Source of the DNA: Catajapyx aquilonaris
Lineage: Eukaryota
Length of the DNA: 34,704 bases
NCBI GenBank assembly: GCA_000934665.2
Contig: KZ539065.1
Span: forward strand, 1 to 34,704
Direction of reading: 5' to 3'
Program-made: the position numbers and the translations under genes
The notes under the pieces: generated by a model
Database searches by the model: none
What the model was told of the DNA's origin: nothing
Seen by the model: only the letters and a program-made list of their open reading frames with translations
Shown: piece by piece, positions 850-28,336 of the stretch
Numbering within the stretch: the first letter of the stretch is position 1
How the letters are laid out: each line of letters starts with the position of its first letter

Positions 850-3800
850 TTAGAGTGTCGTTCTTGATCCTTGATGGCGTCTGAGGTGGCGTGCATTACG
901 ATGATGCACCGTCACAAAGTAGATCTTGAATACAAGGTAAGTGCATTTTCCATTACCAACTTTTTCACATGGCAGAGTAGAAGGTAGTAAATCAGAAAAG
1001 TACTCACTGTCAGAGAACCAACTAGCGTTGCTGCAGCCAATGCAATCAATCCCACTGCTATTGGAACATTCATCCCCTCAGAATCCTCCGTGTCATTCTC
1101 TTGATGTTTTTGAATTCCTAGATATTTGTGGAGAAGGCAGTGATTAATTTCCTCCCTGAAACGATTAGTTTGCGGAAAACATACCAGTTTTATTTTTATC
1201 AGCATGTTTTTCAACTTCAAATTCAGGTAAGGTGTCTGTGGCATTTGTTGGAGATGTTGCCACCGTAACATTTGCGACGACATCCGCAATGCATATTTCG
1301 GGCGACTCGTCCTCCCCATTTGGGCATTCTTTTATCCCATTGCATACATTATCCCATGGAATGCAAGTGACGTTACACTGAAAGTCCGAAGGTGAACAGG
1401 GAACACCAGTGTTGCAATTCTGGCAACAAAAAATAGCGTACATATTATTGTATAGTATAGGGGTACTGTACATGTCTTCCTAAATGATGAAGGCTGCATT
1501 CCTGTAATGTGAACCCACTTGCGTTTGATGCACAGTACAGTACATTTTCATGCAAAACACAGGAAACTACCTGACACTTCATCCTGGAAAGTATGCCACA
1601 TTGCATCTTCGAACATTGGAAGTGCCATGCGGGTTGCCCTGATTAGTCAGGATTACTAGCATGTTCTTGGCCAAGATATCTCCCAGATCCCAGCGATAAG
1701 TGTTGTCGACGTACCGTATTGTTAACGCATTCTGGTTGACCTTCAGGTAGAGGCTTGACTGTAGGCTGGACTGGAGGCTGGATCGGAGGGTAGCAGATCC
1801 TGGCAAATTGGGCGTCGATAGCCGGGTTGCATCCCGTCTCGTCCGATCCGTCGTCGCAGTCCGAGGTCCCGTCGCAGACTTCCGTGCACTTCACGCACCC
1901 TCCAGACACGCAGGCAAACTGCCCCTTTCGACACACTTCTCTAGGTCAGTGTTACGTACTATGCACAATACATCGAGCAAGCTGATTCTTTGGCGAATGA
2001 ACCCTGACAATGTCAGTTCGCTTCTAGTGTGTACCTACTTGCGGGTCGAGTGCAGGTCCGTCCGTTGAGCCAGAGCTTGAGGTGGTCCGGACAGGTGCAG
2101 GTGGTCTTGCGAGATATGGACACGTCCTGGGGCGCTGGAAGGCACAGGTGGGAGCAGTACCCGTTCTTGTCGAAGCACTTGTTGTCCGCCATGGGCTGCA
2201 GGTACGGGTGGTACACCCGTACACCGTACGGGTACTGTCCTGCTTGAGACTGATTTTGAAAAGTAGGGGTTGGGTCACTGGAGAAAACTGGATGGACAGC
2301 ACCGAGGAAGATGACCACACAGGCTTACCGTCTTCCTGGCCGTAAGGTTGATCCGCTTGGCTCCGGTGAATTTGTCAGCGCCGATCAGCGACCTGGTGCC
2401 CCAGTCGGTCCAGTACACCGTGTCCTCGAACACTGCCAGGAAGGCGGGCGCGATGGAACCCTTGGCCACCACCATGCGTCGTTGTCCCTTCCAGTCGCAC
2501 GAGGAGATGGTCATGGTGGCCTGGTCCGCCCAGAAGATGCGCTTCATCACCACGTCCAGGGCCAGGCCCATGGGCAGGACAATGTCCGTGGAGACCATGC
2601 TCTGGTGGTTTGTGCCGTCCATACCGGCCTTCTCCAGCTGGGGGATGCTCCCTCTGGACGTCCAGAACATCCATCCTTCAGGTGGGTACACGACGATGTC
2701 CGCCGGGCTGTCGGTCTGGTCCTTGAGCAGGGTGGCTCGCTGGGTCCCATCCAGGTTGGACAGTTGGATGACACTTTCCATGCTGTTGGTCCAGTACAGG
2801 CGGTTGTAGATCCAGTCCACTGCCAGACCTGCGGCAGACACCGGGGAGGTGTCCGGACCACCAACCACGGCTGCCCAGGTCGTCTCACCGGAGCTCAGGT
2901 CAGTCCTGACCATCGTGGGAGTTACACAAAGAACCCGAAATTAGACAGTTTGCATCAAATAATGGACCGGGTTAATTTCTTCACTGACCTGTAAATCCCT
3001 TCGCGGAAGAGGTCTGACCAGTAGAGAACCCTGTTGGATAGATGGTAGTCGAGGGCTGCCACCCGGGCGTTGTGCTTTGAGACCAGGTTGATCACGCTCC
3101 CCGTTGTCATGTCCACTTGCTCCACGTTGTTGGAGTCTGAGTAAAGGATGATTGGCCTTCCATTGGCCGCCCTGCATCTGGTGGTGTCCTCCGGATCCGT
3201 CACGTAGTCATCGTAGCAGGAACACTCCACTTTCAGGAAGCTCTCCTGGCAAATCTGCGAGCATGTTCCTAGCACCTGGCAACCTGAGCATTGTCAGAGC
3301 CCTTCTCAAGTTATTTTTGGGCAGTCATCATGTAGATTTCGGAGATGTCAGGGAGAGTCGTGTAGGCTATATTTAACACTAATTTGGCTTAGTCATGAGC
3401 AGTGCCTAAGTGACTTGATAAAGTATAGCGAATGACACCGACAAACTCTTAATAGGTTGACCCTGTGCGAGCCAGAAGATGCAACCAAGGACACAACAGT
3501 ACAGTACTCAACCATTTTTGAAAATCACCCATTTTCTGTGTGGGTGCATTTTATATGCCCAAATGCATTTTACTTATTGGATTCATGGATTGATAATGAT
3601 ATGACGGTATTCAGTCTTTCTATCGGTGCCAGTGGAGCAAGATGGAATAATGATTTACGTGGAGCGAGGTTCAATTGGCGCCGAGAAAACCTCAGGTGAG
3701 CAGCACTGGACAAGGTGGGCCCATACCCTTGTCCCTTGACCTTTGCCTGACATAAATAAGGTACGTTAAATTTTCTCACCATGTATGCTCTTATTCAGCA

Positions 3801-4168
3801 GACCTTACTTTCCTATACATATACACAGGCTCAAGTATCATATTTTTTTCTGGTTTCTGCGAGTAATTCAGTGACACTGCTAAAACTTTTTTAAATGAAA
3901 CAGTTGACCTTATTGCTTTTGAAACAATGACAACTACTGAAAATATTACGCCTATTAGCTGGGAGAGCGAAAAATAAGTCAATAGTTAATAAATTCTGGT
4001 GGTATACCTCTTTCCGGTGAACGCCTCACACGACTTGACCTGTTCAATCTTCCAGTTGTTTCTGCAAGGAGTTCTGGATTTTAATACTTACTGACACTGT
4101 AAATAAGGCCATGACTAACCTTGAGCCAGGCAGGCGAGGAACGCAGCGAGTAAAATATACCTAATCAT
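850..4168 (-). CDS. LDL-receptor-family type I membrane protein, paralogue B (SP-EGF-YWTD propeller-EGF-LDLa-LDLa-TM-short tail), ~611 aa
   Basis: Exons (minus): 4120-4168 signal peptide MIRYILLAAFLACLAQ; 4008-4061; 2989-3283 EGF CQVLGTCSQIC...CSCYDDY...C plus LYSD/YWSD; 2329-2905 YWTN, FWTS, FWAD, YWTD; 2035-2249 EGF NGYCSHLCLPAP...CTCP; 1715-1940 LDLa CRKGQFAC...DCDDGSDE; 1185-1419 LDLa CSPSDFQC...CPNGEDE; 1008-1117 TM start VPIAVGLIALAAATLVGSLT; 850-924 IYFVTVHH...TTL*. All introns are GT-AG with compatible phases. Boundaries at 2249, 2035/1940 and 924 (AAG acceptor) are less certain. Confidence 0.88.
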
Positions 4169-4418
4169 AATTTTGTTGGATTAAACTAACTCGGGCGTAA
4201 GCTGTGCAGGTGACGGCCACTGACATTTTGACCAATCTTGTATACCAAAAACTGCTGCTTTTAGAATAAATTATGCACGAAATATTTAGATACAAGAATA
4301 ATGATTGTGTACACTAACAATGAAGCCCAGTTGCCTGGTGCCACGCGACACTCTCATTAGTTACCGTGGTCACGATTATTACAATGTGTTTATGTGCAAT
4401 TATATTCTGCTTGCTATA

Positions 4419-4514
4419 TGTACTATGGGCGCCAAAAGAATTGACCGGAGCTGTTGGGTATATGGCGCTATATACCCATCAACTCCGGTCAATTCTTTTG
4501 GCGCCCATAGTACA
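4419..4514. mobile_element. 96-bp spacerless palindrome / foldback MITE
   Basis: Arms tgtactatgggcgccaaaagaattgaccggagctgttgggtatatggc and gctatatacccatcaactccggtcaattcttttggcgcccatagtaca are reverse complements with 3 mismatches. TA flanks the ctatgg...ccatag ends. Confidence 0.85.
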
Positions 4515-4547
4515 AGATCAGTTGAGTCGGGCACAAATGCAAATGTG

Positions 4548-4810
4548 TGTTTTTATTTTTATTATTTAATTACCCCGATTCCACAGGGCAGAGTCCTTTA
4601 TATAGGGGGGACAAAACCCTCAGTATACAGTTACGGTATACAACACGGAATGAATAAATTACACAAAGTTACGGAAATCACTTTCAAAAATAAATTCTTT
4701 TTCTGACATTATCCAAAAATAATAATTTAATAAATGGAACGTCGCTTCCTTTTTCTTAAGCAGGTCCACCGCCAAAGAAAAATTGCCCTTGGAGGTGATC
4801 AAATGTGTTT
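4548..4810 (-). mobile_element. Possible 5'-truncated LINE 3' end
   Basis: The minus strand reads a short ORF-like remnant, then an AT-rich UTR-like stretch ending ...ggactctgccctgtggaatcggggtaattaaataataaaaataaaaaa (A-rich tail). No diagnostic reverse transcriptase motif is visible. Confidence 0.3.
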
Positions 4811-5057
4811 TAAATCACTCGAGTAGGCCTATAATACTACAAATACTGAGATTGACGCCTGTTATACAAAATATTCATCAGCTACGTTGTGTGAATATTT
4901 TGCAGCACTTCTGTGACTATATCAGTGAATCATACGAAAGTCCGAGTATAATCAGCGATATATTCCAGACTGTTTACAACATAGAATTTGCATCATATTA
5001 GGCAGGATCAAAATTACGAGTAAAATTGGAGTGGATAAATAACAGGCACGTAAACGG

Positions 5058-5063
5058 TTTATT
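5058..5063 (-). terminator. Putative poly(A) signal of LDLR-like paralogue A
   Basis: AATAAA on the minus strand ~70 nt after the stop codon at 5131-5133. Confidence 0.55.
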
Positions 5064-5130
5064 TGGAAGGTAAAAGTGACCGGAGACAGTGGTAGGGGAG
5101 AGCGAATTTGGCTACAGTGACATACTTTGA

Positions 5131-8127
5131 CTAATGAAATGCTGAGGAACAAGTGGAATCGTCCTCGTGATTGTGGAGGTATTCACATGACGAAACTGTA
5201 GGAGAAGGCTTGATGACAAGTTCCAGGACTGAACTGCTGGTTACGGAACCGGAACTGGGTGGCGATGGTGTCCACATGTCCCAAGTGGCACTCCGGTACC
5301 GACGCACCACGGACTGCTGCGCCAGTCTTCGGATTCTCTCCTGTCTCCTCCGTCGTGACACGAAGTATAACTAGAGTCAAATAGAATCACATTATCAGGC
5401 TCTATGTCCCAAAGGTGTATATTTATTAGGTCAACTTACGATGACAGATATTGTTGGTACGGCCAGTGCCAGAAACACCAGCCCCACTGCTAGCGGAACC
5501 TTATTGTTCTCGAGAAAGCTTGCTGATGCCATGTCGTTTTTCTCTTTGGGCGACCGACCTGTATCTGCGAGCGAATGAAGTTTATTAGTAGGGTGTGACT
5601 TTTGAGTGTCGTGGAGGCCATCGTTTGAAGTTTGCAGTAAAGGCTAGTAATGCTCTGCTATTCACATCCAAATGATGCCAGGGATGTCCCACTTTGGGTG
5701 GTACCAATTACCGAGATTCTGCTGTTCCTCTATTTGAAGCAAGGGTGCTGTACTAGTTGCAGGTGTAGTTGTAGGAATAGGTTCCACACCGACAGAGATG
5801 AAAGGATTTATCTTTCTGGTCAAGTTGGAGCATAATTGTGCGTATTCGTCCTCTCCGTGGGGACAGTCCTTCACCCCGTTGCACAGCTTGGTCAAAGGTA
5901 TGCATTTGGATCTGCACTTGAATTCCTTGGAGGAGCAAGGGCCTGCTGGGGGATCCTCAGGGCAACCCTGCGGTGCAGACATTGCGAAGTGCTTGTTAGA
6001 GGGTGTTCCTATATGCTAATATAGTTATCGGTGCTGTAAAACCCGCGCAGACTTTACCTTGGCGTGAGAGTGATTGGCACATGGACTTTCGGTGACCTCA
6101 GCCGGACAGGCTTGGATGATGGCGGGGTCGATGCCCGGATTGCAACCACTTTCATCCGAGCCGTCCTGGCAGTCGTTAATTCCGTTGCACACTTGGATGC
6201 ATTTGACGCAACCGCTCTGAACGCAACCGAACATACCCTTCTGACAACCTGAAAGTCAATCGGATTAAAAGAGAGGTTCAAACAATTTGTCCGATTATAA
6301 GAGCAGGCGCTGGTGTTGGTGGACACACCTGTGGGACGACAGCATGTGCGACCATTACTCCAGAGGGCCAGGTGGTCGGGGCACCAGCAGGAAGTCCGAG
6401 GGGCATCGATGGTGATGTAAGGGGCAGGGAGGCAGTGGTGAGAGCAGAATCCGTTGTTGTGCCGGCACATGTTATCCGCCGTGGGCTGCATGTACGGGTG
6501 GTACATCCGTACCCCGTACGGGTACGACACAGCCTGATCGGGGAGCTGTTGTGAATGTCATCGCTCTCTTGTTAGCTATAGTACATGGTGCTCCATATAA
6601 TGATTCAGATGAAATTGTATGCTCTGAAGGATCATTTAATGTTGACAAATGAACCCGGCAGTTTCTGGATCATTATGAAACACCCTGTACATGGCTGAAT
6701 CTGACAAGCAGGTTGATGTTGCAATTACTTACGGACGCCTTGTAAGTGGTAAGGCTGGTCTGCTTCATTCCGGTGAGCTTGTCTGCGAACATGACGCCTT
6801 TCCAGCCCCAGTCGCTCCAATATACCGAGTCCTCGAAGACTGCGAGGAACGCAGGCAGGATGGCAGATCCTCTGAGTACAATCTTCCGGTTAGCTCCGTC
6901 CCAATCGCAGGAGCCAATCACCTGTGTTTCCTGGTCTGCCCAAAAGAGCCTCCTCTGTACCAGGTCCAGGGCCAGACCCATGGGCAGGCGCATATCGGAG
7001 TTGATTAGCACCTGGCGTCTGCTACCGTCCATGCCCGCCCTTTCCACCTGAGGACGACTTCCTCGGCACGTCCAAAACATCCACCTATAAGTTGGACATG
7101 TCACTTTTTGTACAACGAGAGTGATTGCGCAATTTGCATACCCTTCCGGGGGGTACACCACGATGTCTGCCGGATTGTGCAGCTGGCCACCCATAAGGCT
7201 GCCCTTGTTGCTTCCATCCAGGTTGGAAAACTGGATGATTCCTTTGAGCAGGTCAGTCCAGTACAGGCGGTTGTAAACCCAGTCTACTGCCAAGCCCGCC
7301 GGGGACACTGGTTCAGAGTCTCGACCACCTACCACTGGTGCCCAGAAGGTTTCGCCTGTAGCCAAGGAGGTTCTGCCGGCCGCAAGACACTGCTTATAAA
7401 CCCGGCTCTATTATAGTACACACTGAATTCTCACCTGTATATCCCTTCCCGAAAGAGGTCCGCCCAGTAGAGGGTGCGGTAGGTGTAATGGTAGTCCAAG
7501 GCACCTATCCTGGAATTTTGCTTATACACTAGGTTTCTGACCACCCCGTTGGTCATGTCCACCTGCTCCACGTTGTTGGAGTCCGAGTAGAAGAGGATCG
7601 GGGTGCCTCTGTTGGCCTTGCATCGTTTGTTGTCGTTTGGATCCACCATGTAGTCATCGTAGCATGAGCATATAACTTCTGTTTCAGTCTCCTGGCAGAT
7701 CTGCGAGCATGTTCCCACCACCTGACAACCTAATGGGCATTTGAAGTACACTGTCTGATACGGCTGTTAAAATTTTTCACACATTGCTGTTTTTAAAAAG
7801 TGCGGAGTGACGTCACCTCTTTTGCTATTGCTATTGCAATTTGCTAATAATGACAACACTGGTGGGGCTATACTTGAGACCTTAATCGAAGTGTAGTAAT
7901 GCACACCATAATGGAATCAGTGATTTTAAACACTATGCGATATATGGACGATACCTTTTTCCTTGAGAGATCTCTTGATGCCTGCTGTCTCGTTCAAAGT
8001 AGCTGAAGATGCTGAAATATATTCAAATGATGTAAAGTTGGCAAGCATTAATGGAAGCTGAATCAGAGGCCTACTTACCCTGGAGGAGGCTACCGAAGGA
8101 CATGAGTAGGAGTATACTCTTAATCAT
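5131..8127 (-). CDS. LDL-receptor-family type I membrane protein, paralogue A (SP-EGF-YWTD propeller-EGF-LDLa-LDLa-TM-Ser-rich tail), ~670 aa
   Basis: Exons (minus): 8079-8127 signal peptide MIKSILLLMSFGSLLQ; 7955-8011; 7435-7729 EGF CQVVGTCSQIC plus FYSD/YWAD; 7142-7372 YWTD; 6733-7084 FWTC, FWAD, YWSD; 6329-6545 (alternative acceptor 6533) EGF NGFCSHHCLPAP; 6058-6248 LDLa; 5712-5967 LDLa plus Thr/Pro stalk; 5440-5564 TM start VPLAVGLVFLALAVPTISVI; 5131-5370 LYFVSRRRRQ...SAFH*. GT-AG introns with consistent phases; exons 1 and 3 have the same lengths (49 and 295 nt) as in paralogue B. Confidence 0.9.
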
Positions 8128-9210: not shown

Positions 9211-12200
9211 AGAGCAGATATTCAGATTGAAAATTTGAAATTTAAAATCTAGCACGGATAATTTTCGTAGATATGTTTTTAAAATTTTCACTTGGACGCC
9301 TATAATGTTAGACATGATTTGTAAAGATAATTATATTGTTGCTTGTTTCTCAATCGTTACTTTGAAAACATCCAAGGAGCAAATAATGACTGTGACACCA
9401 ATAATTATGATAACTTACCCTTTGTATAAGTGTAGCTATGCTTTTCAAATACATCCAACTTTCACTTTAATACTTAAAACATGTTGCTAAAAGGTTGTAA
9501 TTTAGCAGTGCAATCAAAATAGCTGTAGAATATCATGAAAAATTATTTCAGGAGCTTTCAGTTACCTGAGTTTGCATAACTCCTATAGAATAAGGATGAG
9601 CGCTGCTCATGCCTCAAAGGCATAGTGCAGCAGACCACACATCGTTTTAATATAATACTGTATCAAAGTGGCACAGAGTTGAAAGTTCTTGAGACTTGTG
9701 TAAATGCAATGTGGAGTAGCCTATATATATATATAGGAGCACCATAAAAATTACCTTGTGCTTGACGTGGAAGAGAGTATTGGTAGGTCGGTGCGTAGAA
9801 AGGTCCGACGCATGTTAGCCGTATAGTGTTTCTGTCTGAATCGTGCATCCTAAACCTTTTAATTCGTTGCTTGGCTCATTTAAGCTTCCCCCAATTACTT
9901 TTTATCCCTCTCACCTCCACTTTCCTTATTAGAGCCGCCGGGAGTTTCATTAGCCGCTTCCGCCACCCAAAAAGGAACAACTTTTTCATCTAATCATTTG
10001 ACATTCCTGCAGCAAAGTGGGAAGCTTCTCCATTTGCCTTTATTGCTGCTCCAAGCCCATTCTTTCAAGGATTTTAGGGGTGGCGGGTGGGAGGGGGGCA
10101 ATTACTTATACTCAGGATATATTGCTGTTCTATCTTGCGCCAAGTACCATTCGTTACTTTTGTATTCTCACCTGCAGGAAAGTTTGCTGCTTGGAGACTC
10201 TCATATTACAAGTAATGCCTGTGTTCCTAACAGCACTTGCTCAAAAGTGGAGTTTTGAAAATTTATGCCGATGCGAATATGACCTTTTTTGCTTTCACTT
10301 AAACTTTACATAAGATTAAAGTCAGCACGATTTAGAATATATTTAGGCCAGGAAGACATTTCAGCCAAAATGAATAGCCCTATTGTTTTTGATATTTAGA
10401 CTCCGTACCATTATGAAAAATCGCCTATTACGTATATGAGTTCATAATATTTCTATGGCACAGTACAACCGGCAATTTAATAGACATGCTGATATGGCAA
10501 CAGCCTGTACGCCGGTTTCAGTGGTCGACTAGCGGTACATATCCAATATGGTATACTAGAGGGGTTTGAAAATGCTTGGAGCACCTGAGGAGTCCATTAG
10601 TGCAAGGGAAGAGTAAGGAAGAAGAAGGAGCATTAGAGGGGTATAGGAGGCGATAGCCATCAGTCTAGACTCATAAACCAATAAAAACCTGCCATAAAAG
10701 CCATTAAGGGAACTTAGCTGGCAGCTTCTTACTAGGCCTGATCCTCAGCTGGACTTTTAGATCCTTCTTTGTCCCACACACCTTTCGTTCGTTTTATTTT
10801 CTTCAATTCTTTTCTGTCTGGAGCCACTTCCATTGTTTCCATTAGACCAGAGGGATATATGGCGAGTCTGATGGTCGGCAGGGACACATGGACTTCCACT
10901 GGTTCGGATCCGACCTTGCTGGCAGTCAATTTTACTGTTCAGAAAAATTAGTGCCGCCGATTTCATCTTATAGGGCAAGGTCGTGATATTTTAAACTTGA
11001 CCACCAAAGCGACCGAAACTGGATTAGAAAAATGTACCCTAGCTCAAGAAAAGACAACATTGTCCGATCCTCCCACAGCAGACCCTTGCAATTACTAGCC
11101 TCAAAATGGAGGCCAGTCTCCTTTTATTCCCCCCTTACACTTCACCATCCATAAGCCATCATCCAGTAGCTTCCGCCATTTTCTTCATTACATTTATCAC
11201 TCTGATGGGCTCGGTAGAGAAAAAAAAAGTTATAAAGGTTTCATATCGTGCATCCCAGCCAAGAGCCAACCCGACCAAGCTGACAAACATTATTTGGCGA
11301 GTGACAAATGGGACCAATTTCAGCAAGAGGGCTGAGACGCTCTTTCTGTCTGTCTGATGTTGGTGGACACACTGGTGAATTTTCTAGACTCAATTGAAAG
11401 CCGGGTCATCCTGAAAGTTAGCTAATCCTTGAAACACTCAGGTTGTATGCAAATAGCCAAGTTACAAGGTGATGCAAAACGTACGAATTTTTAGTAACTT
11501 TTTGATGTAAGCTCCACCCTATGGATATTTCATTGGACGAACTTCAAGCTGGAAGGAGGGGCGTATAAATCAGCGAATCAGAACACACGCGTCATAATTG
11601 ATCGACCCCGTTTTTTTTATCCGTTTCTTCCTGGCATTCATTTGCTACTTTCCACGAGTTAGTAGGGTCTAATAGGACGTGATGAACCGCGCCTGGAAAC
11701 CGCCTCCAATTTATCATCTTGATGGCCAACCTCCCCCTCGACTTCTATTGTGTTTGAACCCAGGGTTTTGAAACAGCCGTAAAATTTTTAGGGATTTTAA
11801 GTATTTAAAAATCTGATGTAGTGAAAATTTGGCGCCAGATTGGAGGCGGGCTATGTTGAGGTAAAACCACAGAATGTGCCTGGAGGCTAATTTTGCACCA
11901 AAATGGCAGGGTGGGTTGGCAAGCATGTTTTGCAGGGTAGGATGGGTATAGGTGTTGGAAGGGGGGGGGGGGNNNNNNNNNNNNNNNNNNNNNNNNNNNN
12001 NNNNNNGGGGGGGGGCTCCATCTCGCCGAGCCTCGTTGGAAATTGGATTCCAGGCTTCTTGGCTTTGTTTGGGAGGCGGCTCATTGGCGCGCTGGGCCTC
12101 ATTAGCCGCTGCTCCATTAGCCCGCCTTTTGTAATTAACTGCCAGCTGACGTCACTTTAATTTAGACCCGCGCTAATTAGACCCCACCTATCTCCACCCC

Positions 12201-13667: not shown

Positions 13668-16600
13668 ATAGAGAGGGGGGTGAGGGGGAGGTAGGGACGT
13701 CAAAGTGCTGCTAACGCGCCTAATAAATCCTGGATCCGTGTTCATGACAATGTTAGTGGGTTGTAGGGGGGGGGGGGGCTTCCACCCGCTCCCTCCCCCA
13801 CTTTCTCCTTCCCTTGATGGAAAAATCGTTATCTGCTTAGCAAACCGAGGAAGAGGAGGGGCCTTTTGGTTGCTTGGTAACAGGAAGTGGGGGAGTCAGA
13901 GGGAGGCAAAACTGGGGGAGAAGGGGGAAAATGGCGGATACCAGTTAGAGAGCACCTTAATTTTACTGATAAATAGCTCTATAGATACACGCTTACTTTG
14001 GGGGATGTAAGCTTGTTCTGATTTACTTTTGTCATAATAAATTACAAGAAAATTTGAGTTTTTTTGTAGTAGGTACCGTATTTAGTAAGTTACATGTTGT
14101 TATTTTAGAGACTGTAAATCGGGGCTGTTTAAGTATGATCCGAAATACTGAATGGTTAGATATCACTGAGAGAGAATATCTTCGAATCTCCAATAATTTA
14201 ACTTTACGTTGGAATCTGCCAATCTATCGTCCAATTGTTAATTTTCCTTCGTGTTGGTGTTTTCTTGGTAGTCACTGACGTCATTTCGAAAAGAAATTTG
14301 GTGGCAAGCATATTACGAGTAATCTGATAATATGTTTATATTTGGCAATTTTTGGCAATTTTTTATCAATTGCTCTATACATTAGCCTACATTTTTCCAT
14401 TTGAATTATGTACAGGCCTATAAGGATCTGTTTATATGTAACAAATTGCTGCTCATGTACAATAGACAACAGCACAATCAGTTTTTGTCATTTCTGTTAT
14501 CTTTGAATGTTACATACTTAAACGTTATTAATATTCCACAAATGTGTCCTCTGCTGCATGTATGTATAGTAGTGACGCAATAATAACTGCAGCTGTCCAG
14601 TATGAAGTGTACGTATACATTACAATCCTGCCCCCAACCCCTTCACAGTTTGCACTCATTTCTATAACTTAATGAAAATAAAACAGTCGACAGATAGGAG
14701 GACAATGTCACTTTTGTTATCTAGTTGACTGATTATTATTATTTTTTAAATGATACCTAGATTGATGGGGTCATTATGCCTTCGAGTCAGTTGTCTGTCT
14801 CACAAACTATCTGCTTGCATTTGCAGACATCTCCCTTGAAACGCGTTTGTTGTGTTGAGGCGATGTGGCGACAGTTAATGAAGGTGAAGTATACGCCACG
14901 CAATGGTGCTGGTCGATCCGAGTGTCTCGAGTGAGTCATTCCACCTCATAACATGCCTGAAGAGGTTTAGAGTGCTGCACAAATCCAACCTTTGTGAGTG
15001 CCGTTAGAGTAACCGCCGGATCGGAATTATGATCAACATCCAACTGCCTGGCAGGTGTTGAAATTCTCCGGAGGAACGTCGATCATTACTTTACTGTATT
15101 ACCGTTGTATCAACTTCTCAAATAAATGTTAAATACTGTTAGGCGTAGACAATAATATTTGGCATGAAGTGTTTGTAATAAGCAGGTTATCTGGCTGAGC
15201 TATAGGTATTTCGCTGTTATCACGGCGTAATTTGAAGGCATTTTAGAAAGGCAACATTTATTGCGGTTCAGCAGCTAATATGCACCCTAGGGGGGGAAAA
15301 CGTTTGATGTTCATAATCTCATTACCCGCAAATGTGATATCTTTCCCCATCTCTCTGCCTGCTGCTGGTATTAGCTTGACATCTGAGGGATGGGAAAAAT
15401 GATTTGAAACACAGAGAAAATGATCCCTCGTGAAGGATTCCTGGGCCCTGAAATAATGAGGGTTAAATAGCGAAGTGTAATCATAGCTGCGGCCTGGTGG
15501 GTAAAAATTCCCCCCCTCCCCTCCCACATACACTCTGGACCTTCATCCCAGCCGCATAATCCGTCATATGCGCTCATATTGATAGTCCGGGCGTTTATTG
15601 CGGTCGGGCCAAATAGCTGGCGTGAATTTCCAATCATTTCATAATTCCAGCTTTGATGCTAGCGGGATCTCACACACACGCTCATGTGCACATGCACACA
15701 CGCATATGATTTTCCCCGTTTCTGGATGGAAGCTCTCTTTTATGGGGGGGGGGGGGGGGGGGGGGNNNNNNNNNNNNNNNNNNNNNNNNNNNNNNNNNNN
15801 NNNNNNNNNNNNNNNNNNNNNNNNNNNNNNNNNAAAAGCTCTCCGGATGGGGTTTTGCGGTTTCTGTCGGTGGCCTCCACAGCCCTCCCCCTCCTCCCCC
15901 CTGCCCTCCCCCATCCGAAATGCCAGCGCTTACTGCCACTCAACTTCATCCCCCACCTCCCCCTCACATCCACCTCCCATATACACACACATGTTAAGGC
16001 TCATAAATAATGGGAGCGACTTTTGTGTCATATTTTTCGTCTGTCCTCCGTATAGTCACATACAGTGTGCAGTTCGGTGCTATTCATCACCGATATCTGC
16101 TTGCTCGACTGTCAGCATGTTTTGCACTCACTTGAAAGTGTGTTGGATTTGCATGTTTTCGTCCATGCGAAATGCAGGATAGAGTGAGTGATCGTGATGC
16201 GAGGAGAGTTTAAATATACCAGAGATGATATTCAGAAACATTTTCCGGTACAAGTGCATAATAATAGCACAATAAACTATTCATAACAGAATGCGGGGAA
16301 GTAATAGGGGAATAAGGAATTAGCTCAAAAGTCGCGAATTAGTGACTTAGCACATTTTATTTGGGATTGCTTCTTTCCTTTATGGAGCCCCTTTCGCCAT
16401 TTGTATTGGCTGCTATTGGTGTCCAAAAACTCGCCATAAAAATCTTCGGCATCACAGCACTTAATATTGCCAGTGTGCTATACTGGTACAGTAGGCTATA
16501 TCTGATCACGATCCGCCCTTATAATGAGGTAAATGACCCTCAATTTTAAATATTTGCCCATTATGCGAGGCAGTGTGGGCAGCCACCAAAATTGTGAATC

Positions 16601-17744
16601 AAAATTGCTGAAATATTCAAACTCCCGCAATGCACGATGTATGGTTGGTAGCATTTTGGTAATAACATACTTTAATATGTATCTATTGCTGCCTTAACTT
16701 TGATGGCAGTGTCTATACGCTCAGGACATCACTTTGACCTATACTTCCTTAGGCTACTCTACAGAGAGCATGCGTAATAAGCAGAAACCCAGCTTGTATA
16801 TACTTTTTCATGGACCTATACTTTTCTAGTGTGCTCCTTTTTCAACGTCTCTTTTTTTCCGTCTGAAAAATCTTTTCTGGAATTCGCTCCAAGAAGATGA
16901 AGGAGCCTGGTTGGGAGGGGAAATGAGGGTGGTGGGTGGCAGTTGGGTGGGGAGAGGGAGCCAGGGGGAGTCGAGTGCTCCCTTTCCAACTTATTAAGAA
17001 GCCCTTCATATATCCGGAGCTATTGAGCCCTCAAACGCTCGCCGAGGCATTTTCCTCAAGCTCATTTGAACAACCTTTTCAATCCCCGTTGCCTTCTTCT
17101 TCCCCGTCCCCCCCCCCCNCCCCCCCCCCCCAAAACTTGCAGATCCCCAACAAAGCAGGATAATATAATATTACACGCAAATTTTGCTAACCGGTTGGTC
17201 CAAAACTTATCACACCATTACATAGCGAGGAAAAGTACATTTATTTAAATTGATTGCGCTGAAAGTCCCAATTTGAGATAACCCACTCGTTGTAAGGGGG
17301 TGGAGGAAGAGGAAGAAGAAAAAAAAACAATAAAAGACAATGCTCCGTCTTTGAAAGGCAATATCGAGCTAGGGCAGCATGCCTTAGCTTCTTGGCTCAA
17401 AGATTGAGTGGCCCCGCTTTTAGGAGGTGGGGGGGGGGGGGGGGGNNNNNNNNNNNNNNNNNNNNNNNNNNNNNNNNNNNNNNNNNNNNNNAACCCCCCC
17501 CCCCCAACCTCCACCCACTACCACCCTCAAGTCTTAAAAATGTCTTGGCGAGGTTATGTCGTAATTTCCTTCCCTTTTTTGTTGGGGGAAGCTTGGATTG
17601 CGAATTTTAATTATGGAGGATATCAAGCATTAATGGCTTAATTGGACGGGCTGACTTTTTTTTTGCCCAACTATGTATGAAAGATGTATCGTGCATATGC
17701 TGAGTGGTAGACTCGTATACTGTACAACTTGGAATTAGTATGCC

Positions 17745-21400: not shown

Positions 21401-23939
21401 AGCATAAGTTAGGTCCATAATTTCAATGTAGTGATATGGAGCCAATGTTTCGGTCATTTTGACTACCCAGACAATGCCATCGCTATTTAGTAATGTGTAT
21501 GGAACATAATGCTTCAGCGACCACGATATATTGCCATGCAGAATGGACTTTTGTATACAGGGGGGTAAATTGATATCCATGTTTTGTTACGGTGGTGTTA
21601 TTAAGGTCCGAGGAACATAATGAAATAGGCAGCAGTGATTTAACAAAAACTAGATATAGGCCATTGGAAATGAAATAATTTTTGCAGACAAAATGCATTG
21701 TTAAACAGCTATATATACATGACTTCCTTTATGACATGTGCAGTGCTATACAATCATTGTTCAATATCATACGAGTATACTGTATCTCACTTTTTTCCAT
21801 GCGCAAAAATTTGTAACCACTTTACGGCTGTATAGCTGCAGTATATGGTGATTGGAGCATTACTTAAAAACCTGAACATGTACTATTATCTGATAGGACG
21901 GGACGATAATAATCAGCAGTGAGGTGTGAAAGGAAGAGAATTTAAGTGAAACCTAATATACATATTCGAATCACAATGTTCCGCAAAAGGTTTTCGTGAA
22001 TACACTGTAAACCGCAAAACATTAAAAGAGCATCACTGTGGTGAGTCGCCTATGGAGCATCAATTTTTAATGCTTTTCTGATGCAACAAAAAAGCGTCAC
22101 AAGAGCATTAAAAGTTGATACTCCATGGGAGACTCACCAGTGATGCTCTTTTAATGTTTTGCGGTTTACAGTGCTGTATATATAGATGAACATTATAAAT
22201 TATCGGACAACACTACTGAAACCGCTAGGAAAAATTTAAGGCTCGTATCCGGATTGGCGTACGTTTTCCGAACATCAAACTCATGACACTCCTCGCCGAT
22301 TTTCGTTTGCGTCGTTTAGGTTTTCCCCATTTTACAAGAGCATTATGTGAATGTATTCCTATCGCAGTAAGTCTCATCACTCACTCGTTAACTTAGTAAG
22401 CTATTCAACAGTAAGCAGGGTGCTCGAATAAATTATCACATAATTTTTCAAGTTTTTTGAGAATATGTAAAAAACTATTGCGGATGTTGATTTTGGAAAT
22501 TCTGGACAATTTATTATACGGCGATGTTCGTACATTAATTTTCACAAATGTGTGAAATTTTGTTTTTGGCATAGAAGGTAACCTTTGACCTCGGAGGTCA
22601 CAAATGTGAGTAACAGGGGATAGCTTCTTTTGCAGGCTATATCACATGACCTCCCACCCCAACCAGTTGTGCTAGAAAAATTTCTAACTGGCATGGACAA
22701 ATAATATACTCAATATATATAGGGGCAAAAATTTGTACAATTTCGCAAGGAATCCGGGTCCAACATTCGCATTTTCCCGAACATCATGATGGATAATAGC
22801 CTAAACCATATTCAAGAGTGTTGCAGAACATTCTAACGCCATCCGGAAATTTTCCGTATAGAACCGTTTTGTTTAGCGGTAAAGTCATTTGTGCTGTATA
22901 TAATAATACCACAAGATTTTATAATTTAGGTTAGACAAAACCTTCCTTAATTTCTTCCCATTGCATCCAGCGAATTCTATTGTTCACTATGTAAGCTCTG
23001 GTTATACCGTCTACATCTTTATGCTCGCGACTGTACAGCCAAACATTTTGTTTGCATTTTACGTGACTCATCCCGAATAACCCTGATGCATGAAATAACT
23101 GTATATATGCAGAGAAATGTGAAACTAACCTGCGCCTCTGTCAGCTGAAGTGCTGAAGCCAGGTACAGCCTCTCCGGACCTACCATGTACTGCTGCCTCT
23201 CAAACTCGGCTTCGAGGCGTTCAAGTTGCTCGGGTGTGAAGATGGTCCTGACCCTTTTGGCCTTCCCTGGTCTTCTGGACGACTGACCCACCGAGGAACT
23301 CCCTCCGCTTCCTCCACCCCCTTTTTCTGCCGAACCAAACAACAGACTGTATGAAACATTACCAATCGGAAACCACCCGGTGCATCCCAGCAGCAGTCGA
23401 CATATACCTGAAGGGTTGGTTTGATGGTGCGGCCTCCGACAAGGCACGAAACCATGGTGGTGATGGTGATGGTGGTGATGGTGAGGAGCTTCCCTCCTGA
23501 GGGTGGACGGCACCCCTCCGATCTGGTGGTGCTGGCCTTGTCTGCCCTGCTGGTGGTGGTGATGGTGCGGATGGGGACCTAATCCCAGGATGGAGGCGAT
23601 GGTGAAGGACTTGGTGGTGGCTGCCCCTCGCTTGTCAAACAGGTGGTGGTGGTGATGGTGGTGGTGGTGACCTGGGACTGCTTCGGATGCCCCTTCAGCA
23701 GCACCCACGCCTGACGCTGCTGCTCCGGCAGACACCTCGTTGCCGCTACTGCTGCCCAGTCCCAGTCGGTTGACGTTGTTGTTCGAAGAGTTGGCTTCTG
23801 GTAAGGACGATGTCTCCGGAGATGAAGGGGGGCTTTGGGAGGAGGAAGAGGAGGCCAAGTAGGGGTACTGCAGGCTGGCCAAGTCCAGAAGGGGGCCGAG
23901 GGGGCTGAAGGGGTAGGTCAGAAGAGGTGTCTGCAACAT
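18500..23939 (-). CDS. Noto: Noto/Not-family (ANTP class, NK-like) homeobox transcription factor, ~296 aa
   Basis: Exons (minus): 23408-23939, 23130-23326, 18500-18661. Homeodomain AKRVRTIFTPEQLERLEAEFERQQYMVGPERLYLASALQLTEAQ|VKVWFQNRRIKWRKQ has the Noto-type QQYMVG..R and RRIKWRK motifs, with a phase-0 intron at the common Q|VKVWF position. Also an eh1 motif FTIASIL (23586-23606), poly-His tracts and an acidic C-terminus ending ...DERDDK*. Confidence 0.93.
22003..22173. mobile_element. MITE with CACTG...CAGTG termini, in Noto intron 2
   Basis: Long TIRs cactgtaaaccgcaaaacattaaaagagcatcactg and cagtgatgctcttttaatgttttgcggtttacagtg; imperfect pairing continues almost to the centre. A second copy lies at 29394-29536. 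Confidence 0.88.
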
Positions 23940-25499
23940 TGTCCACCTTTGGATGGTTGCTTCAGCACTGACTAGTCACTCATGTGGAGGAAACTAGATG
24001 GATTCAGGTATTAGGCGGGNGGGGGGGCACGCGATGTCCACTCGCGCCGGTACTCACTAGCGTATGCGAATTACACACTCACGCGCATGCTGCCAAGAGA
24101 AAGCAATTTCGACACTGTTACATCACCTGTTCTCTGGTAAACCATCACTTATCATGCACAGCATGTAGCATATTATTATCAGTAATTTATACTAAACCAA
24201 AATTTAGGACAAAATATAGAGCATTAGTTCATCATGCAAGTGGTAAATGCGATGATCAACAGAAACATTGTTCGTTGTATATGGTGGGCAATAATTTCAT
24301 GTTCTTTTTAAATAGTTCAATAACTTATGTAGTGTGTAAAATAGTATATTTTGAATGGCTATAACACTACAGGCTATGGGCAATACACTGTACCACTTTA
24401 TTCGTGATGTGCATACAGAAGCAAGAGATGCATCCGAAATTAGGCAGGCATTTTCATGATAATAATTGCCACACCAGCTCTACATACACAGTAAAAGTAC
24501 AAAACTGACCCTAACAAAAACTAATAAATGTTTCATTCGTGACACATTACGTTTGATCTCTAGCCTAAGTCCTGAAAACGCAGTAATACGAGATGTAGAT
24601 GTAGTACAATGGCATGCAACGTAAGCATTTCTCGCACAAGCGATTATATGCATTAATATTAATTTCCACATCTATCGATCCGAAATATCTATCAGAAAAC
24701 AGTGTGTCGCTACTTGAATATGTCGTAGGCCTACAGAGAGTGCTTTAGAACTTACAGGTAGCATAATAATTCCCAACGGCAATTTTTCTCGACATAGCGC
24801 CAAAGGCATGTGATTCCTTAATTTCCTTAATTCCTTAATTTCAACAGATAACATCTCTAAATGTGAAATTGCTTTAGGCATAGAGCCCGTATGGCTGTTT
24901 CATTAGGCATACTCATTAACGTGCCGCAATGAAGAATTATTCAGTGTACTGAATTATATAGTAGGCCTATATCATGTAACACGCGGGGCACAAATGCACT
25001 CAATCAAACTTGGAATAGCTCAAAGCAGAGTTGTACCACATAGATTAATGTTTTACGCTGCTTTCCCATGCGCTGATACGCAGTACCAAACAATAACATC
25101 GGCGAAATACTCGAAATGTAACATACCGGTACGCGTAAATGCCACTCTAAGTCAGAATCTTACACGTGAAACCCCAACCGACACACTCGCATACCAGCCA
25201 CGAAAGATGAAAGGTTGTACATTACGTGACGGACAAGTGACGAACATCTGTCAGCCTGATGACGGACGCGTGTCCTCTTGAGTCCCACCTCACTGTCTCC
25301 CCGATCTTGCTGGAATAATCAGCGTGCAATTAACACCGGTAGGATGATGGTCTGCTGCGCAGGTAGTAAAACGTGGGTTATGTTGTGGTGAGTGTGAGAG
25401 GAAGGCAAGATGGGGGTGTGAAGAGAGAGGGCCTGCCTGGACTGGTTTGAGCAGAGAAGGCAGCAAGCAGGCAGCTCCAGGCCGTGATGGAGCTTAGGG

Positions 25500-25672: not shown

Positions 25673-28336
25673 AAGCCATGTCGCAGCACTGTTGCCACCT
25701 CCACTTGCATTTTGTCGCGGCACACCCCGACACGTTTAGTTGTCGGATATGGGGCAGGGCAGTATCACTTGATTCAGTCTAAAAACAAACTCTATAAACG
25801 GTGTGATGTTGAAATGTTTTTACGATTTGAGGAATTGAGGCAATGTTTCTTATGAACACTCTCGAAGGTGGAGCAAGTTCCCAATTCATTGTTCCCAAGT
25901 AAAGTGCCTCCTATAATAATGACAACATAAACAAATGGGAGGAAGACTTATTTGACCTACATGTATGTACGTATCTCTGATGTCGATCTTCTTGTCAGTG
26001 TCTGCGGTTGTTGTTCGGCTGTGTGCAATACACCGGGTTATCTGATCGGCTCTCCTGCTGATGGAATGATGAACTGAATGTATACACTCGGAGGGTACAC
26101 TTGGGCTGAGCTCCCCAAAGTCACTTTGATCCCTTTTGCGGATGGCCGACGTCCACCAATAAACCCACTGGTAATCCTCACTGAAAAGGATTTACACCGA
26201 GCTTGACTTTTGCTGACCTTTTCCAGCCGGTGGTCGTCCTGCTGGAAATAACACTTCCCAAAATCTGACCCCCCCCNNNNNNNNNNNNNNNNNNNNNNNN
26301 NNNNNNCCCCCCCCCCCCCCCGGGAGTCTTGCCCCGGAATGTCAAGGAGAAGGCAGGGACTCCGAAGAATAAATGGGTCAGGAGGCAAGGGAGCTGTAAT
26401 TTTGGCACTGTTGTCCCATTTTAAAGCCCCGGGGTAAAAACGGCTTAGAGCGGCAAAATGCAACGAGGATTATCTCTATTTTGGGAAAACCAAGAGGTCC
26501 ACCCAGACACCAAGGCCAGTAGATAGACCAAGCTGTAGACGCTGCCCTGGAGGAGAAAAGTAATGAATGGCAACCAGTGATTCATAAACTGTTTCGTATG
26601 GCAAGAATTTCCATTCTTCCCCAAATGCTAATATATAGGGTTTTTAACCAGTGGCGTACTGTACTGCTACAGAGGCATATTCTGCTACATACAAATCATA
26701 AACATTCGCCCATACACCATACTAAAATAATTTCGCTGTGAGAGTAAACAGATGAGACTGATTATTATTTAAAAATATATGATTCGCACCGAAATATATA
26801 TTTTTTTACGTCAGCAGGCAATGACTTCCGACATTGTTGCATTAACAACTCGATTTGAGTATGCTGTAATATGGTGTATTAATAAAAATCTGACAGATCC
26901 CAAACAAAGACATGAATTAGCTCATCGTCAGATATGCACATTTACAAACTTCTCCCGGGGCGGCACACCATATGACACAGTTTATCTGGAGTGTCCTTCA
27001 GAAAAAAAAATGAACAGCCTTCCGCCATAAGAGAAACTGTTCATTTCATTTATTCCTCATTGCTATAATAATCTCTGGTTAATGACATACTTGGCAATAT
27101 GAATTCAGTTGGCCTTGGTGAAGGGTTCTGATTGACAACATTAACAGGTATTGAATTGATAAAATAATACTTCTTTGTGTGTGCCTCAATTGATACTTAT
27201 ATTTTGAATCCTGCTGCCAATCAATTCATTTCATTTTCTCCATTAGGCTCACAGAACATGTATTACTGTGTGCACCCATTGGAATTTCATTACAATAATG
27301 TTGCATGTCTTTTACGTATGTGGCTGATCAACTCATACTATGAGGCGCGCAACATCCAGTAATACCTGCAGACGCTGCAGTCAATCCAGTGTGCATCCAG
27401 CATCTGTCCATTGCTGTAGATGAGTGAGTGACGAGCGAGGCATCCATCCATCCATCCAGCAAGAGGGTCTGGTAGTGAGCTAGACGAGCAGCAGTGAGGC
27501 CCAAATTGAAATCAATGAAAGGGGTTGGGGAGGAAAAGCGTCGGGGCTCCGGCTTTGAATTCCCCGATTATTAACAGTGAACTGGCCAAATTCCTGAAAC
27601 CCAATTACTGGGCGGGGACAAGAGGAAAAGGCAATAACGACAATCTCGGTGACATAGTTGAGGCGGCAGGGAGGCAGCGCTGGCTTTCAGGGGGACGACT
27701 TTTATTCCCCCAGCCCCCCACCTAGTCATCCTCTTCTACTTCGGTTATTATGTATTGGGACACATATCGGTTTCCGATTGTAGTCAGGAGACATTATGTA
27801 GGGGACGGGCGGGTCGGGGGAGGAACAACAACATGTCAGTGGAGGGAAGTATAGATGCGGGGCTGCAAAATCTGTCCTTGTTTTTGGGAGGGAAATGTTA
27901 CTGTACAGAATAATTATGGTAGTCGAGTTTCGGAAGGTGACCAAATTGCCGACATTGTCAGAACAAGTTTATAATACAAATAATTACGCAAGATTTAGAG
28001 AGAGAAAATATCCTTCTTTGGAGCCAGGTCTTCTTTTGTACAAGCACATTGAAAGTCCGTTCTTTTGAAGTGCCAATATATTGTAAAAATGCCTCGCCGC
28101 AGCAGATGCTGGCCCATTTGATCTAATTGCACTCATCTAGCAGTTGATGCTTTGTATATGCCTACACCTGTCATGGAATGACTGATTGGGGGTTTTAATA
28201 TTATCATGTCATTCCGGTCCTTTCTCATCTTCCTATTCTCCCCGTCTCCCCAACGCTGTTTGCTGATTTAGTACTAGTAATTAGATTCTGTGAAGCAAGG
28301 GAGGTGGACGAAGACTAATACAGTTTTAATAAAAAT

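Follow-up and report, generated by a model that had tools for sequence, protein, structure and literature searches.

The LDL (low-density lipoprotein) receptor superfamily is a classic example of exon shuffling, and the order of its modules is held to matter for function. In LDLR, an N-terminal cluster of LDL-receptor class A (LDLa) repeats folds onto the YWTD propeller and thereby releases ligand; in LRP5/6 it is the propellers that bind Wnt and Wnt antagonists. LDLa repeats located behind a propeller are found in SorLA and in the interior of LRP1, LRP2 and LRP4, and mosaic extracellular proteins with unusual module orders are common in invertebrate and other animal genomes. Here we describe a 34,704-nt stretch of the Catajapyx aquilonaris genome (assembly GCA_000934665.2, contig KZ539065.1, positions 1 to 34,704; the whole stretch is referred to as the window). 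Its minus strand carries two intact head-to-tail genes, A and B, which encode predicted receptors whose LDLa modules are located between a single propeller and the membrane. An LDLR-type propeller whose sole LDLa modules are membrane-proximal would be a simple natural test of a propeller acting alone. A related arrangement is described for Lrp13 (LRX+1) from fishes and other vertebrates, in which an LDLa repeat lies C-terminal to the propeller region (PMC9935665, PMC11772764); in fish Lrp13 this single C-terminal repeat accompanies 7-13 LDLa repeats at the N-terminus (PMC9935665).

Domain order of the two tandem genes

Pfam was run on the in-frame translations of 14 exons of A and B. The resulting series is identical in the two genes: EGF (FXa_inhibition), Ldl_recept_b, EGF, Ldl_recept_a, Ldl_recept_a. 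The four LDLa matches, two per gene, scored 31.4-37.4 bits (Pfam cut-off 24.1), the three Ldl_recept_b matches scored 43-77 bits (cut-off 21), and the second EGF, at 35.6 bits in A and 35.7 bits in B, exceeds its cut-off of 33.4. Four YWTD-type motifs per gene matched the regular expression, and the full-length alignment to six-bladed cassettes points to six propeller blades. Each protein contains one hydrophobic segment (19-mer window) near the C-terminus in addition to a hydrophobic N-terminal leader, and both are predicted to be type-I single-pass membrane proteins. Read from the N-terminus, the full order in A and B is a signal-like start, a segment of ~18 aa, EGF, YWTD propeller, EGF, LDLa, a cysteine-bearing linker, LDLa, stalk, one transmembrane (TM) segment and a short tail. 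The features of the two genes are as follows.

8127-5131 (-): gene A, 10 exons, 670 aa, frame open, all junctions GT-AG; exons 8127-8079, 8011-7955, 7729-7435, 7372-7142, 7084-6733, 6545-6329, 6248-6058, 5967-5712, 5564-5440, 5370-5131 (stop included)
7955..8127 (-): A exons 1-2, start codon, hydrophobic signal-like segment, ~18-aa segment with N-glycosylation sequon and dibasic KR
7435..7729 (-): A exon 3, N-terminal EGF and first blades; FXa_inhibition 3.7e-06, 27.4 bits
6733..7372 (-): A exons 4-5, remaining YWTD propeller with a 57-nt intron between them; Ldl_recept_b 4.7e-11 and 3.5e-16
6329..6545 (-): A exon 6, propeller end and second EGF; FXa_inhibition 1e-08, 35.6 bits
6058..6248 (-): A exon 7, LDLa-1 with seventh Cys and start of the Cys-bearing linker; Ldl_recept_a 1.1e-07
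5712..5967 (-): A exon 8, linker end, LDLa-2, Thr/Pro-rich stalk; Ldl_recept_a 2.9e-09
5131..5564 (-): A exons 9-10, stalk, TM, 78-aa basic Ser-rich tail; hydrophobic from residue 570
4168-850 (-): gene B, 9 exons, 608 aa, frame open, all junctions GT-AG; exons 4168-4120, 4061-4008, 3283-2989, 2905-2329, 2249-2039, 1935-1715, 1419-1185, 1117-1008, 924-850 (stop included)
4008..4168 (-): B exons 1-2, start codon, signal-like segment, ~18-aa segment with sequon and furin-type RVRR
2989..3283 (-): B exon 3, N-terminal EGF and first blades; FXa_inhibition 0.0035, 17.9 bits; six Cys conserved with A
2329..2905 (-): B exon 4, remaining YWTD propeller; Ldl_recept_b 1.3e-21
2039..2249 (-): B exon 5, propeller end and second EGF; FXa_inhibition 1e-08, 35.7 bits
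1715..1935 (-): B exon 6, LDLa-1 with seventh Cys and Pro-rich Cys-bearing linker; Ldl_recept_a 4.6e-09
1185..1419 (-): B exon 7, linker end, LDLa-2, stalk with several N-glycosylation sequons; Ldl_recept_a 2.2e-07
850..1117 (-): B exons 8-9, stalk, TM, 24-aa basic tail; hydrophobic from residue 562

The gene models are predictions from the genomic sequence, built from stop-to-stop frames and coordinate-defined exons. GT-AG borders are present at 17 of 17 introns, whose sizes are 67, 225, 62, 57, 187, 80, 90, 147 and 69 nt in A and 58, 724, 83, 79, 103, 295, 67 and 83 nt in B. The junction of B exons 5 and 6 (2039 joined to 1935) was picked to hold phase 1 as in A; the alternative pair, 2035 and 1940, alters just a few residues. 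Exon structure is common to the two genes apart from one extra propeller intron in A, a 57-nt GT-AG intron (7141-7085, minus strand) that is in frame and stop-free and across whose site B and all homologues are continuous. This intron was either gained in A or lost in B after the duplication, and its retention would add 19 residues to a blade. Since A terminates with a TM segment, a tail, a stop codon and a downstream AATAAA (at 5063, 68 nt beyond the stop) and B has an ATG and a hydrophobic leader of its own, A and B are two genes and not one; an AATAAA is also located downstream of B, at 676. The two genes share a first-exon length of 49 nt, and the N-termini of their proteins align. A six-frame search of the whole window found no LDLa signatures beyond four sites, two per gene, and tblastn of the window with the A and B models found no third copy. 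Three hairpin-like inverted repeats that resemble miniature transposon remnants flank or separate A and B: 1-54 (27-nt arms, 96% complementary, no spacer), 289-452 (66-nt arms, 89% complementary, 32-nt spacer) and, in the A-B intergenic region, 4419-4514 (48-nt arms, 94% complementary, no spacer).

The A and B proteins align over their full length with 52% identity (327/625), rising to 69% in exon 3, and 28 aligned cysteines are conserved between them. Over 589 aligned codons, the differences at codon positions 1, 2 and 3 amount to 33%, 27% and 54%, and the Nei-Gojobori method (NG86) gives a nonsynonymous divergence (dN) of 0.369 and a synonymous divergence (dS) of 1.72, with dN/dS ~0.2. Because dS is saturated, the tandem duplication is placed long ago; the comparison indicates that the duplication is old and that both copies are under purifying selection.

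Both copies also share details outside the canonical modules. The ~18-aa segment that follows the leader (8011-7955 in A, 4061-4008 in B) contains a conserved N-glycosylation sequon and has RVRR (B) or KR (A) as its last residues, just ahead of the first EGF; it may be a propeptide that is cut by a convertase at these basic residues. In A as in B, LDLa-1 contains a seventh cysteine that falls between canonical cysteines 3 and 4, and no cysteine occupies this position in any of the 15 best-scoring LDLa modules of other proteins. Three additional conserved cysteines are located in the linker between LDLa-1 and LDLa-2, and the four extra cysteines would be enough for two added disulfides. The calcium-cage positions are acidic or amide in all four LDLa modules, and none of the four has a Trp two residues before the fourth cysteine; in LDLR module structures, the Trp at that position normally helps to form the lysine-docking site. 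No NPxY, PPPSP, YxxPhi or acidic di-leucine motif was found in the 78-aa tail of A or the 24-aa tail of B. The pattern NP.Y has no match anywhere in either protein, and PPP[ST]P has none in the tails.

An earlier reading of the window, made from its letters and open reading frames (the sequence-only reading), had proposed this domain order for both genes; Pfam, hydrophobicity and the signature scan agree with it, the six blades by homology. The sizes it gave for the introns between exons 1 and 3 of A (67 and 225 nt) match the model exactly. Its statement that there is no room for N-terminal LDLa exons holds for A; in B the second intron is 724 nt long, but the window has no LDLa signature outside the four sites. 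Its description of a gene that was duplicated and retained as two intact copies is borne out by the open frames, the 52% identity, a dN of 0.37 and a dS of 1.72.

Ancestry of the cassette and of the LDLa pair

When the whole EGF-propeller-EGF cassette (residues 36-396) was compared with other proteins, the 25 best high-scoring segment pairs (HSPs) for each gene were with insect VLDLR/LDLR/lipophorin-receptor (LpR)-type proteins and look-alikes at 36-39% identity, and the same set of proteins scored highest, at >300 bits, with a hidden Markov model of the cassette. A quick tree of 64 rows, which included cassettes from LRP4, LRP6, LRP1, LRP2-like, pro-EGF, vitellogenin receptor (VgR) and VLDLR/LDLR together with 12 other single-propeller proteins, placed A and B inside a 17-row LDLR/VLDLR/LpR-type clade with a support of 94 by the Shimodaira-Hasegawa-like approximate likelihood ratio test (SH-aLRT); the stem of A and B measured 1.06. 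A 48-row tree was composed of these rows minus 20 (mostly long or redundant) plus four cassettes of the fish Lrp13-like proteins P0119 and P0120. The corresponding 16-row clade with A and B received SH-aLRT 98 in the quick version and SH-aLRT 99 with bootstrap 91 in the careful version, the bootstrap not having settled. LRP4, the four LRP6 cassettes, Lrp13-like, VgR, LRP1/2 and pro-EGF all fell outside the clade containing A and B in the 48-row trees. Taken together, these comparisons make the LDLR/VLDLR/LpR lineage the best-supported, if unproven, candidate source of the cassette.

Several results weigh against this assignment or against the fuller account given in the next section. The first EGF lies under the Pfam cut-off of 33.4 in both genes (27.4 bits in A, 17.9 bits in B); the call is supported by its six conserved cysteines and by its end-to-end alignment with the pre-propeller EGF of lipophorin and VLDL receptors. 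When the propeller exon alone (B exon 4) was compared with the PDB, single-propeller scores were 145 bits for LRP6-P1, 141 for LRP4, 134 for VLDLR, 125 for LDLR, 119 for ApoER2 and 89 for nidogen; the scores for LRP6-P1 and LRP4 are thus slightly higher than those for VLDLR and LDLR, and PDB scores of this exon discriminate poorly. Removal of 20 of the 64 rows preceded the 48-row tree, the bootstrap of the careful tree reached a correlation of 0.964 and is unsettled, and the stem of A and B is long, at 1.06-1.3 changes per column. In the approximately unbiased (AU) test, holding A and B with all 28 LRP4/LRP6 rows was not rejected (log-likelihood difference, delta lnL, 2.9; p 0.44), and holding them with the fourth LRP6 cassette was just short of rejection (delta lnL 22.6, p 0.057). 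No donor of the LDLa modules stands out, the best scores being 30.9 bits for LDLa-1 among 1749 modules scored and 37.0 bits for LDLa-2 among 1530. Finally, the functional part of the account is wholly inference.

LDLa-1 and LDLa-2 are each encoded by one exon. The two-exon pair spans phase 1 to phase 1 and is placed between an EGF exon that ends in phase 1 and a stalk/TM exon that starts in phase 1, a pattern that is consistent with the trace expected of a two-exon unit inserted in a phase-1 intron. The term exon-shuffled in the sequence-only reading fits this pair of exons, shuffling itself not being demonstrated by it. The affinity to LDLR/VLDLR/LpR that had been proposed on the basis of the EGF sequences finds backing in HSPs of 36-39% identity and in the clade with bootstrap 91 and SH-aLRT 99, but the AU test keeps the LRP4/LRP6 placement (p 0.44). 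The proposed mini-Arrow topology is correct as to the order of the layout, but the cassette does not group with LRP6 in free trees; the AU test gives p 0.057 for the fourth LRP6 cassette. The background to that proposal, in which propeller-then-LDLa is the LRP5/6/Arrow layout, was drawn too narrowly: fish Lrp13 has LDLa behind propellers too (PMC9935665). So do SorLA and the interior of LRP1/2/4.

Protein collections were searched for orthologues with several parts of the genes. The propeller exon found none among proteins of 337-2000 aa (of 1385 candidates, 197 passed E<=1e-10, with identities of 48% at most), and the exon-3 profile found none in 4 of 52 candidates (identities up to 32%). HMMER with the exon-3 profile against 1.84 billion representatives likewise yielded no orthologue: there were 272 matches at E<=1e-3, none scoring like the query, and the two below 1e-30 were proteins of >4400 aa with nine stretches, in which single stretches scored ~60-75 bits. 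A profile of LDLa-1 plus linker retained 13 of 57 candidates, of which just one, the vitellogenin receptor of a mosquito (40% identity), covered the linker, and the propeller exon retrieved only generic Ldl_recept_b clusters from the ESM Atlas. These absences say little about lineage specificity, because the first four of these searches also missed A and B themselves; the collections searched probably lack the proteome of the source animal and perhaps the proteomes of its relatives, and the family is at most a putatively lineage-specific one. Of 284 proteins retrieved, 20 contain an LDLa signature past the last YWTD motif, and in none is a single propeller combined with a TM segment and the lack of N-terminal LDLa. 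P0061 and P0114 were considered as relatives of the same architecture and rejected, both being truncated two-propeller fragments that end in an LDLa. No description of an EGF-propeller-EGF-LDLa2-TM family was found in the open-access literature searched.

Proposed origin and competing accounts

We consider it somewhat more likely than not that A and B, tandem paralogues of the LDL-receptor superfamily, combine a cassette of the LDLR/VLDLR/LpR lineage with a shuffled LDLa pair and serve as surface or co-receptor proteins that bind through the propeller. According to this proposal, the EGF-propeller-EGF cassette would derive from the LDLR/VLDLR/lipophorin-receptor lineage, the ancestral N-terminal LDLa cluster and first EGF would have been lost, and a two-exon LDLa unit with outer phases 1-1 would have taken the place of the O-linked stalk by shuffling into a phase-1 intron. 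The old tandem duplication would have come afterwards, with both copies kept by purifying selection. The propeller would form the membrane-distal head and the likelier surface for binding ligand, in the manner of LRP4, LRP5/6 and nidogen, and the two calcium-cage LDLa modules a disulfide-stiffened membrane-proximal base. Because the tails are without NPxY and PPPSP and the LDLa modules without the usual Trp, A and B are unlikely to be classical Dab/ARH-dependent endocytic receptors for lipoproteins, or Wnt co-receptors of the Arrow type acting alone; they would instead be surface binding or co-receptor subunits, with uptake or signalling through a partner, which we offer as the most economical proposal for their role. 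A bolder version, to which we give only tentative credence, is that they represent an undescribed, taxonomically restricted family in which a lipoprotein-receptor head was re-mounted on an extra-disulfide LDLa pair, convergent with the layout of Arrow/LRP5/6 and Lrp13, with the propeller, not the LDLa modules, as the ligand sensor and, since no known sorting motif occurs in the tails, with partner-dependent signalling or uptake. For now the pair is an annotation-level curiosity.

The origin from the LDLR/VLDLR/LpR lineage has to be weighed against several other accounts. In one, in which the LDLa pair never moved, an internal EGF-propeller-EGF-LDLa stretch of an LRP1/LRP2/LRP4-type gene could have been duplicated and have gained signal and TM exons. 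The required local order, propeller then LDLa, exists inside LRP1/2/4, and the two-propeller fragments P0061 and P0114 end in an LDLa; moreover, the AU test keeps A and B beside the LRP4/LRP6 rows (p 0.44), and the highest summed exon-3 profile scores belong to proteins of >4400 aa with nine matched stretches. We nevertheless regard a partial copy of this kind as unlikely, given that the best trees set A and B among single-propeller LDLR/VLDLR/LpR cassettes, apart from LRP1, LRP2-like and LRP4, and that the best end-to-end HSPs are with LpR/VLDLR-type proteins. A truncated LRP5/6/Arrow that retained the last propeller with its EGF, a pair of its three LDLa modules and the TM segment would show the identical order from the last propeller to the membrane, and its fourth cassette is narrowly kept as a partner of A and B by the AU test (p 0.057). 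That placement costs 22.6 log-likelihood units, however, and the fourth LRP6 cassette is distant from A and B in free trees; in addition, PPPSP is present in neither tail, there are two LDLa modules rather than three, and an EGF precedes the propeller, all of which render such a truncation very unlikely.

It is also conceivable that the models themselves mislead, the real genes having further 5' exons that include an LDLa cluster, or the copies being decaying fragments. The models derive from genomic sequence, and ab initio models of mosaic proteins are prone to error; PMC3927612 deals with this theme. Against this stand a conserved 49-nt ATG exon whose hydrophobic leader can be aligned across A and B, the absence of the LDLa signature from the 26 kb upstream of A and from the A-B intergenic region, and open frames with GT-AG borders throughout and dN/dS ~0.2; an artefact therefore seems quite unlikely. 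Descent from an Lrp13-type (X+1) receptor through loss of the repeats clustered at its N-terminus would draw on the LDLa repeat that Lrp13 has behind the propeller region (PMC9935665) and on the fish proteins P0119 and P0120, which show 6+1 and 3+1 LDLa signatures plus a TM segment. Both cassettes of P0119 and of P0120 lie outside the clade containing A and B, though, and the C-terminal repeat of Lrp13 is single whereas A and B have two, so that we find this derivation highly improbable.

Elsewhere in the window, a 318-aa open frame at 23022-23975 (minus strand) gives a homeodomain match of 4.7e-12 that an intron cuts after profile position 46, and contains long poly-His runs and Ser-rich tracts; by its look it may be a homeobox gene of the Not/Noto class. 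WD40-repeat gene exons are located at 31290-32048 (minus strand; WD40 1.4e-08) and may belong to a BUB3-like gene; the PDB gave only generic WD40 matches and RAE1 (~33 bits). No Rfam families were found in the window. Six N runs of 1 to 68 bases (11973-12006, 15766-15833, 17119, 17446-17491, 24020 and 26277-26306), several of them beside Gly/Pro-coding simple sequence, mark the window as part of a draft assembly built into scaffolds.

Comparison with known receptors

The base of A and B resembles CD320, in which two LDLa modules parted by a cysteine-bearing linker are followed by a stalk and a TM segment. CD320 chains are among the LDLa-1 matches at 32.7 bits, not above many other LDLa modules, and CD320 has neither the propeller nor the EGF modules of A and B. 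SorLA/LR11 shares the order of propeller and EGF, then LDLa, then membrane, but it also contains VPS10, 11 LDLa and FN3 repeats, and no VPS10 or FN3 Pfam match was found in the exons of A and B. Part of the SorLA architecture is described in PMC11772764. Lrp13, at ~1230 aa, combines 7-13 N-terminal LDLa repeats with one C-terminal repeat, as compared with none and two in A and B.

LRP5/LRP6/Arrow is alike in its propeller-EGF-LDLa-TM order and in having no N-terminal LDLa cluster. It differs in its four propeller-EGF units, three LDLa modules and PPPSP motifs, where A and B have one cassette, two LDLa modules and no PPPSP, and the A/B cassette groups with none of the four LRP6 cassettes in free trees. 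With LDLR, VLDLR, ApoER2 and the insect lipophorin receptors, on the other hand, A and B share the cassette (36-39% identity over ~360 aa, same tree clade), a type-I single-pass topology, which for A and B is predicted, and LDLa modules that keep acidic calcium-cage residues. These receptors have an N-terminal cluster of 7-8 LDLa modules, whereas A and B have none before the propeller; they carry EGF A and EGF B there, where A and B carry a single EGF; an O-linked stalk occupies the place of the two LDLa modules; and their tails contain the NPxY that the tails of A and B lack. If the proposed ancestry is correct, A and B would document a second route to an Arrow-like layout. They are an unusual module order within the known LDL-receptor superfamily, in which similar local orders are already known.

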